A DNA stretch of 235 nt. It comes from Escherichia coli (lineage in GTDB: Bacteria; Pseudomonadota; Gammaproteobacteria; Enterobacterales; Enterobacteriaceae). Of the stretch, positions 7 to 93 are shown piece by piece (position 1 is the stretch's first letter; every line of letters begins with the position of its first letter). The stretch is taken from NCBI RefSeq assembly GCF_003334385.1, contig NZ_QOWN01000225.1. One strand, written 5' to 3'. The position numbers were made by a program, and so were the translations under genes. The notes beneath the pieces are model-generated. The model saw only the letters and a program-made list of their open reading frames with translations. It did not search any database and was not told the DNA's origin.

Positions 7-42
7 GCCTGATGCGACGCTAACGCGTCTTATCAGGCCTAC
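7..42 (+). repeat. REP palindromic unit, Z-like (GCCTGATGCG type), complete
   Basis: Direct: stem arm 7-20 GCCTGATGCGACGC pairs with arm 25-38 GCGTCTTATCAGGC (reverse complement GCCTGATAAGACGC) around loop 21-24 TAAC. The arms match except for the central dinucleotide (GC versus AA), the asymmetric mismatch typical of REPs. The unit ends with the conserved GGCCTAC head at 36-42. Confidence 0.88.
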
Positions 43-59
43 AAATTCCCGCGCCATCC

Positions 60-93
60 GTAGGCCGGATAAGGCGTTTACGCCGCATCCGGC
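60..93 (-). repeat. REP palindromic unit, Y-like (GCCGGATGCG type), complete, inverted relative to the preceding unit
   Basis: Direct: GTAG head at 60-63; stem arm 64-76 GCCGGATAAGGCG pairs with arm 81-93 CGCCGCATCCGGC (reverse complement GCCGGATGCGGCG) around loop 77-80 TTTA, with the same GC/AA central mismatch. Read on the minus strand it is GCCGGATGCGGCGTAAACGCCTTATCCGGCCTAC. Confidence 0.88.

Follow-up and report, generated by a model that had tools for sequence, protein, structure and literature searches.

The AA/GC stem mismatch of the REP hairpins in a BIME-2 array between mhpE and mhpT of Escherichia coli

The DNA considered here is a stretch of 235 nucleotides from Escherichia coli (contig NZ_QOWN01000225.1 of assembly GCF_003334385.1), which we call the window, and the elements in question are the repetitive extragenic palindromic (REP) hairpins carried by it. 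Many E. coli chromosomes, that of the K-12 derivative J53 among them, match the window at 100% identity, and in them it is located in the intergenic region between mhpE and mhpT, two co-directional genes to which the window strand is antisense. It is made of a 101-nt tandem repeat present 2.3 times with 97% identity, and each repeat contains two hairpins, one of the y type and one of the z2 type. The full array of K-12 comprises nine such hairpin units in an intergenic region of 577 bp (MG1655 374882-375458). We are highly confident that the window belongs to a bacterial interspersed mosaic element (BIME) of class BIME-2, whose 101-bp repeat it contains 2.3 times, as found at mhpE–mhpT in K-12-like strains, and that its AA/GC mismatch is the canonical REP bubble recognised by RayT (TnpAREP), a REP-associated tyrosine transposase (RAYT).

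By definition, BIME-2 are mosaic elements of y and z2 REPs (PMC3333891), and the window agrees with this class in the alternation of inverted y and z2 units, in the spacing z2-17 nt-y-12 nt, in the period of 101 nt and in the variation of copy number between strains. As is characteristic of REPs, the sequence is abundant and extragenic: the window lies between genes, and matches to it were found in 5426 of the 5426 complete E. coli genomes, about 2204 of which cover at least 80% of the K-12 query at mhpE–mhpT. The strain alleles of the array contain 1, 3, 5, 7 or 9 units and differ by exact 101-bp (y+z2) steps, with spans of 499, 598, 699, 800 and 901 bp; K-12 has nine units, LR-64-1 seven, an extraintestinal pathogenic isolate five and strain 204446 three, and in O104:H4 and O157:H7 a single y unit was found at the site. 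In these allele calls the variant regular expression mis-registered some y units, and there the unit counts and the raw sequences alone were used.

The pairing of the stems was read directly. Twelve of the 14 arm positions are paired in the z2-type unit, the exceptions being G14·T31 and C15·T30, and the same proportion is paired in the y-type unit, with A71·C86 and A72·G85 as exceptions. A preliminary description of this DNA, made from the letters alone, had stated that the arms of both units are identical except for a central dinucleotide, and its coordinates were correct. It had also opposed GC at 14-15 to AA at 30-31; the mismatch is real, with the caveat that 30-31 reads TT on the + strand and becomes AA when reverse-complemented. 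Written in a common sense, the z2 unit (reverse complement of 3-42) is GTAG-GCCTGAT-AA-GACGCG..CGCGTC-GC-ATCAGGC and the y unit (60-93) is GTAG-GCCGGAT-AA-GGCG..CGCC-GC-ATCCGGC, and both, with y extended to 60-97, are described by the formula GTAG-GCCKGAT-AA-...-GC-ATCMGGC. Since the two units follow the same formula on opposite strands, they are inverted relative to each other. Within 7-93 the feet that bear GTAG or CTAC face each other across the 17-nt linker, and the opposite ends face each other across the 12-nt linker. The units had been described as head-to-head: inversion and facing feet were found as claimed, and the choice between that label and tail-to-tail depends on the convention; Ton-Hoang 2012 inverts the head/tail convention of Bachellier, as is stated there (PMC3333891).

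The units also reproduce the other features of E. coli REPs. GTAG is present at 60-63 and 161-164 on the + strand and, in the form of CTAC at 39-42 and 140-143, on the − strand. The stems are the y-specific GCCGGAT and the z-specific GCCTGAT of an imperfect palindrome of about 30-37 nt, both of them majority forms in MG1655. The two-base AA–GC mismatch is placed midway along the stem with AA on the GTAG-proximal arm, as described in PMC8266576, with AA 71-72 against GC 85-86 in y and, on the − strand, 31-30 against 15-14 in z2. The folds of the single hairpins had z values of −4.0 to −5.6 relative to dinucleotide shuffles, none of 200 shuffles being equally stable, and any 14-nt inverted repeat with at most two mismatches was obtained in 5 of 2000 mononucleotide shuffles, while the window has four. 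Between the tandem copies there are three differences in 101 nt, located in linker or loop. It was noted that these fall at 49/150 and 57/158 in the 17-nt linker and at 79/180 in the y loop, stems and bubbles being unchanged.

The longest open reading frames in the window, of up to 39 aa, derive from the repeat and encode no real protein, in accordance with the earlier statement that no transposase is encoded there; as genes, these short repeated frames (39 aa) were rejected as repeat artefacts. BIME-1, also called RIP, which binds IHF, was rejected as a classification, there being no z1 unit and no long L linker, and the linkers measuring 17 and 12 nt. Three inverted y/z-type pairs of the MG1655 sample (e.g., 2001968-2002066) span about 98 bp, from which a linker of about 36 nt is deduced. 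An intrinsic terminator was likewise discarded: no GC-rich hairpin followed by a T tract was detected in the array on either strand, and the sole hit lay inside mhpT, at chance level.

It was also possible to see that minimum free energy folds of the whole window, on both strands, prefer long hairpins between units, in which y pairs with the neighbouring inverted z2 in a REPIN-like manner, to the hairpins of single REPs. Pairing of this kind closes the AA/GC bubble completely, AA lying opposite TT and GC opposite GC, and the bubble exists only in the local, intra-unit hairpins. It forms solely where a single strand has folded back upon itself, be it single-stranded DNA, an extruded cruciform or RNA; on the strand with 5'-GTAG it is a 2x2 internal loop of A·C and A·G, and on the complementary strand it consists of G·T plus C·T. 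This bears on the proposal that the array is mainly a DNA-level binding site for proteins such as DNA gyrase and DNA polymerase I, in which the bubble matters for cruciform geometry. In vivo cleavage of BIME-2 by gyrase, binding of polymerase I and topological insulation are all cited in passages of PMC3333891, in agreement with the preliminary description, which had named REPs as binding sites for both enzymes. Gyrase, however, acts on duplex DNA, where the bubble is absent as AA pairs with TT and GC with GC, and the proposal therefore does not explain a conserved intra-strand mismatch; we regard it as distinctly unlikely.

The conservation of the bubble was evaluated in MG1655. No REP features are listed in the RefSeq annotation table of this genome, and a census of our own was built instead on 350 kb, in seven samples of 50 kb, fixing the outer 7-bp stems (at most two substitutions), leaving the bubble free and taking the orientation from GTAG or CTAC alone. 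An earlier pattern, with two substitutions and no GTAG filter, was dropped, its hits being mostly false positives in coding DNA. The census yielded 59 GTAG-oriented units at 21 loci. In 52 of the 59 the bubble is AA on the GTAG-proximal arm and GC on the distal arm, with the same polarity to GTAG, and AA is in the 5' arm in 58; at least one of the exceptions is a register artefact. The bubble position is Watson-Crick paired in 3/59 units versus 53-59/59 for each outer stem position, and stem variants such as GTCGGAT/ATCCGAC stay complementary, whereas the bubble was in no case repaired. Although the search left it unconstrained, the bubble reached a per-column identity of 0.96-0.99, equal to or above that of the stems and above that of the loops. 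The mismatch thus marks the polarity of the hairpin, as had been proposed: it is locked to GTAG, and the complementary strand (iREP) is left unbound by the transposase (PMC3333891).

A 2026 preprint (bioRxiv 10.64898/2026.03.23.713779) reports that REP variation is concentrated in bubbles and loops, considering all 697 annotated units. In our census, of canonical GTAG-bearing units, loops were also variable, whereas the bubble was among the most conserved columns; the discrepancy probably reflects the inclusion of degenerate units in the preprint.

A scan of other species with the bubble written as N gave at least 114 stretches from Citrobacter werkmanii, which made up almost all of the matches listed, plus six chance or contaminant hits, and so provides a comparison of two genera, not a survey. 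Among the matches listed for C. werkmanii (NBRC 105721) there are at least 163 units; AA is in the 5' arm of 151 of these 163, C precedes ATC in 149, four are fully complementary and the remaining 159 keep an unpaired bubble. The distal side of the bubble is there mostly CC (119/163) and not GC. Between the two genera one base differs, but the bubble stays unpaired and its flanking C is retained. Some y-like units of C. werkmanii carry an extra C, with GCC opposite AA. The scan also returned a contig assigned to Campylobacter sp. TTU_617 (NZ_JAENKV010000054.1, 397 nt, coverage 0.96) carrying a REP of enterobacterial type (GTAGGCCGGATAAGCGG...), which is probably assembly contamination.

These data can be confronted with the idea that the bubble is unselected and was passively inherited from one or a few recent AA/GC master copies. 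The near identity of tandem copies at one locus would be expected from it; moreover, only the unpaired state, and not the bases, mattered in the systematic evolution of ligands by exponential enrichment (SELEX) reported in PMC8266576, and the z2 units of a BIME remnant in CFT073, a strain without rayT, keep AA/GC in spite of a decayed GTAG. Nevertheless, the 21 dispersed loci vary in stems and loops, in part by compensatory changes, and still the bubble position is so rarely paired; in Citrobacter the 3' side has passed from GC to CC while the bubble remained open; and repair of the bubble abolishes the binding of RayT (PMC3333891, PMC3479197). We therefore hold passive inheritance to be very unlikely.

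The gene for the enzyme is present in the host species. In MG1655, rayT (b0228, formerly yafM) lies at 247637-248134, about 127 kb from the array of the window, and is annotated as REP-associated tyrosine transposase; its product matches the NCBIfam equivalog NF047646 with 179 bits, the cut-off being 80, and is identical to chain A of PDB 4ER8. The gene is flanked on both sides by the same units as in the window, y-12 nt-z2 upstream and z2-17 nt-y-12 nt-z2-17 nt-y downstream, with near-identical linkers. It was found as a single copy in 3575 of the 5426 complete E. coli genomes. The RayT of C. werkmanii is 74% identical to the E. coli protein and is likewise flanked by REPs. A REP-flanked rayT in the host, together with GTAG, the unpaired bubble and C↓T motifs in the window, places the array with the RAYT-associated REPs of the group 2 REPtron. 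Three outcomes had been named beforehand as contradicting the preliminary description, namely a host genome without a RAYT gene, the lack of other copies of the units and a stem mismatch not conserved in them; all three were examined and none was borne out, since what we found was rayT between y and z2 units, 59 oriented units at 21 loci of the MG1655 sample with matches in every complete genome, and the AA/GC bubble retained in most copies.

Positions 60-91 of the window are equal to the 32-mer crystallised with TnpAREP (oligonucleotide sequence from PMC3479197) but for one base, C65 in place of A6, and therefore 71-72 and 85-86 correspond to A12A13 and G26C27 of the published numbering. In the 2.6-Å co-crystal (PDB 4ER8) the bubble is formed by C27:A12 and A13:G26, and Lys82 contacts C27 (PMC3479197, Messing 2012). 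TnpAREP binds only folded single-stranded REP with a 5' GTAG (PMC3333891, Ton-Hoang 2012), and repair of the bubble, GC to TT or AA to GC, abolishes both binding and cleavage (PMC3333891; PMC3479197; PMC8266576), which bears out the earlier claim that RAYT enzymes recognise and cleave such structures. Other unpaired combinations are still cleaved in vitro, the unpaired state being the key feature (PMC8266576, Corneloup 2021). The iREP strand is unbound and is nonetheless cleaved at TGCC↓TGAT and GCC↓TAC, the arrow marking the cut; linkers are cleaved at C↓T, and the enzyme rejoins strands (PMC3333891). A polarity of the hairpin that is conferred by the mismatch and read by RAYT is experimentally established in the literature with other REP substrates. 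In the window, the cleavage consensus is found on both strands, TGCC↓TGAT at 6, 107 and 208 and GCC↓TAC at 37 and 138 (+) and at 65 and 166 (−), with a distance of exactly 101 nt between type I sites. The coordinates of all the features are collected in Table 1.

Table 1. Features of the 235-nt window (positions refer to the window; the arrow marks the cleavage point)
Feature	Positions	Strand	Remarks
3' part of the 12-nt inter-REP linker	1..5		Truncated at the window edge; homologues in the 101-nt register at 102-106 and 203-207
TGCC↓TGAT, published TnpAREP "iREP type I" cleavage consensus	6..13	+	Recurs at 107-114 and 208-215; putative cleavage site here
z2-type REP hairpin	7..38	−	Arms 7-20 (GCCTGATGCGACGC) and 25-38 (GCGTCTTATCAGGC), loop 21-24; REP on the − strand, iREP on the + strand; z2 consensus form across MG1655
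GC half of the z2 stem bubble	14..15		Opposite 30-31
Second half of the z2 bubble: TT (+), AA (−)	30..31		
CTAC on the + strand, GTAG foot of the z2 REP	39..42	−	GCC↓TAC (37-42) fits the type II cleavage consensus (PMC3333891)
17-nt linker between the GTAG-bearing feet	43..59		AAATTCCCGCGCCATCC; 2 differences in the second copy, 144-160
GTAG foot of the y REP	60..63	+	TnpAREP binding and cleavage need GTAG (PMC3333891, PMC3479197)
y-linker-z2 doublet, Rfam RF02564 (naRNA4), 87.2 bits	63..140	+	Second, truncated match 164-235
y-type REP hairpin	64..93	+	REP on the + strand; arms 64-77 (GCCGGATAAGGCGT) and 80-93 (ACGCCGCATCCGGC)
AA of the y bubble, A12A13 in the published numbering	71..72	+	PMC3479197, PMC8266576
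GC of the y bubble, G26C27	85..86	+	C27 contacted by TnpAREP Lys82 (PMC3479197)
12-nt linker between the non-GTAG ends of y and z2	95..106		GTCGTGCGCAGA; position and length as in rayT-flanking BIMEs
Second z2 REP (108-139) with its foot (CTAC 140-143 on the + strand)	108..143	−	
Second GTAG (161-164) and y REP (165-194)	161..194	+	Loop differs from the first copy at 180
Third z2 unit, cut by the window end	209..235	−	

Taking these results together with the published biochemistry, the bubble and GTAG would allow RayT, a monomeric HUH/Y1 nuclease present in single copy in the host, to bind the REP strand and not the iREP, and RayT would then cut at C↓T, either in the linker or in the adjacent inverted unit. 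The inversion of y relative to z2 means that a REP for binding and an iREP for cleavage would lie side by side on each DNA strand. Cleavage and rejoining by RayT at sites 101 nt apart, or primed amplification, as in the models of PMC3333891, or else recombination or slippage, may add or remove whole y+z2 units. Once transcribed, the array would in addition serve in the 3' untranslated region as a stabiliser and attenuator between mhpE and mhpT.

Several points weigh against RayT as the agent at this array. The activity of RayT in vivo was not demonstrated, according to the authors themselves (PMC3333891), the in vitro data come from the REPtron and several other BIMEs, and a mobilome study saw no circular BIME intermediates. 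RecA-dependent unequal exchange or replication slippage explains the 101-bp series equally well without RayT. O157:H7 has rayT yet only one unit at mhpE–mhpT, so that the presence of rayT does not predict amplification there, and about one third of the complete E. coli genomes lack rayT and still carry BIME-2 arrays. Finally, conservation of the AA and C27 bases themselves is stricter than is required in vitro, and RayT recognition may not be the sole constraint on the bubble bases. In this regard, the lfhA–yafL interval of the rayT-less CFT073 holds only a BIME remnant, whose z2 units have lost GTAG (GTCG or ATAG) and keep the AA/GC bubble. Since the bases are conserved beyond the need of RayT in vitro (AA on the GTAG-proximal side and C next to ATC are 93-100% conserved in E. 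coli and in the Citrobacter matches listed) and the bubble persists in rayT-less lineages, a second reader of the bubble could be postulated, which might be a host protein that recognises extruded or single-stranded DNA, or else a factor that works at the level of RNA on the REP hairpins of 3' untranslated regions (3'-UTRs); we consider its existence unlikely.

A different possibility is that the main present-day role of the array is post-transcriptional. The hairpins in the mhp 3'-UTR would stop 3'→5' exonucleases and dampen read-through into mhpT; hairpin stability, or the access of helicases and RNases, would be tuned by the bubble, and RayT would be only the historical disseminator. The array lies between two co-directional genes, which is the commonest context of REPs, and the sense-strand RNA is strongly structured (z = −8.6); the internal loop differs with the orientation, being A·C/A·G in REP and G·U plus C·U in iREP. 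The related array REP325 has a stabilising effect on the mRNA upstream and an attenuating one on the gene downstream (bioRxiv 10.64898/2026.03.23.713779), and by this analogy the transcribed array at mhpE–mhpT would probably be a 3'-UTR stabiliser and an attenuator between the two genes. On the other hand, natural alleles with a single unit are common, which makes a large array dispensable, no U-tract terminator is present in the array, and the same preprint reports no genome-wide effect on half-life. A post-transcriptional role also leaves unexplained the polarity of the bubble locked to GTAG, although it is compatible with RayT recognition of the bubble. As the main role today, we judge it possible, with a chance somewhat below even.

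Considering that the Rfam family RF02564 (naRNA4) matches the window, it could also be thought that the array is a gene for naRNA4-like nucleoid-associated RNAs which, with HU, bridge cruciform DNA and condense the chromosome. The match at 63-140 and a second one of 68.1 bits exceed the gathering score of 59.5, and the original naRNA4 model came from REP325, an array of the same architecture (PMC4550694). However, every y-linker-z2 doublet that was sampled scored as a hit to RF02564; in 150 kb of MG1655 these lay at eight BIME-2 loci, the two sides of rayT among them, and the model therefore detects the BIME-2 repeat and not a specific function. At mhpE–mhpT the naRNA4-like strand is antisense to the flanking genes, the sense strand scoring 62-63 bits, and a promoter-like site was not found in the intergenic region. 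In the 2026 preprint, whose group counts the original senior author as a member, no nucleoid compaction by REP325/naRNA4 was observed. With generic matches, no promoter-like site found and the evidence of the preprint, an naRNA4 gene was rejected as the primary explanation and appears extremely unlikely.

As a discovery these results carry little weight, every element of the finding being already published: the mismatch with its polarity and coupling to GTAG, the inverted arrangement within the BIME-2 architecture, the link to RAYT, the need for the bubble in TnpAREP binding, the co-crystal included, and the binding of gyrase and polymerase I. Their value is one of annotation. The proper label for the window is mhpE–mhpT BIME-2 array, in place of an unknown structured element, and its match to RF02564 should not be taken as evidence for a nucleoid RNA gene. 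Meanwhile, the natural alleles with 1, 3, 5, 7 and 9 units are a resource for studying the effect of REP copy number on the expression of flanking genes and the role of RayT in the gain or loss of units.

The unit types y and z2 of REPs, or palindromic units, and the class BIME-2 were reportedly treated also by Gilson in 1991 and by Bachellier in 1994 and 1999. By comparison with the E. coli REP/BIME-2 system, the window shares the GTAG foot, the imperfect palindromes of 30 nt (y) and 32 nt (z2), the AA–GC bubble, the alternating inversion, the linkers of 17 and 12 nt, the tandem array, the extragenic site between co-directional genes and the copy-number polymorphism (Ton-Hoang 2012). There is no difference of substance, the window being one of the annotated K-12 arrays. 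With the group 2 REPtron of RayT (TnpAREP, YafM; PDB 4ER8) it has in common a REP that differs in one base from the co-crystallised one, the bubble positions, the CT motifs and the units placed at rayT; it differs in being a distant array and not the REPtron itself, and is a predicted substrate of RayT.

REP325/naRNA4 (RF02564) shares with the window the BIME-2 architecture and the period of about 100 bp, the window scoring above the gathering threshold. It is located at yjdM–yjdN, where the naRNA4 strand is co-directional with the genes, in contrast to the antisense arrangement at mhpE–mhpT, and its nucleoid function is disputed. The sub-terminal palindromes of IS200/IS605 elements (IS608, ISDra2) are similar in their hairpins with irregular stems, in the recognition of folded single-stranded DNA by a Y1 HUH enzyme and in the tetranucleotide at the 5' foot. 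Unlike them, REPs do not delimit a mobile unit encoding its own transposase, and RayT is monomeric and single-copy; in REP arrays, moreover, both strands are substrates, because the units are inverted. With REPINs, a term reportedly coined by Bertels and Rainey in 2011 for group 3 REPs of Pseudomonas, the window shares inverted REP doublets able to pair, as seen in the long inter-unit hairpins preferred in whole-window folds; the stems of the Pseudomonas group 3 REPs are perfect, while the E. coli units carry the bubble.

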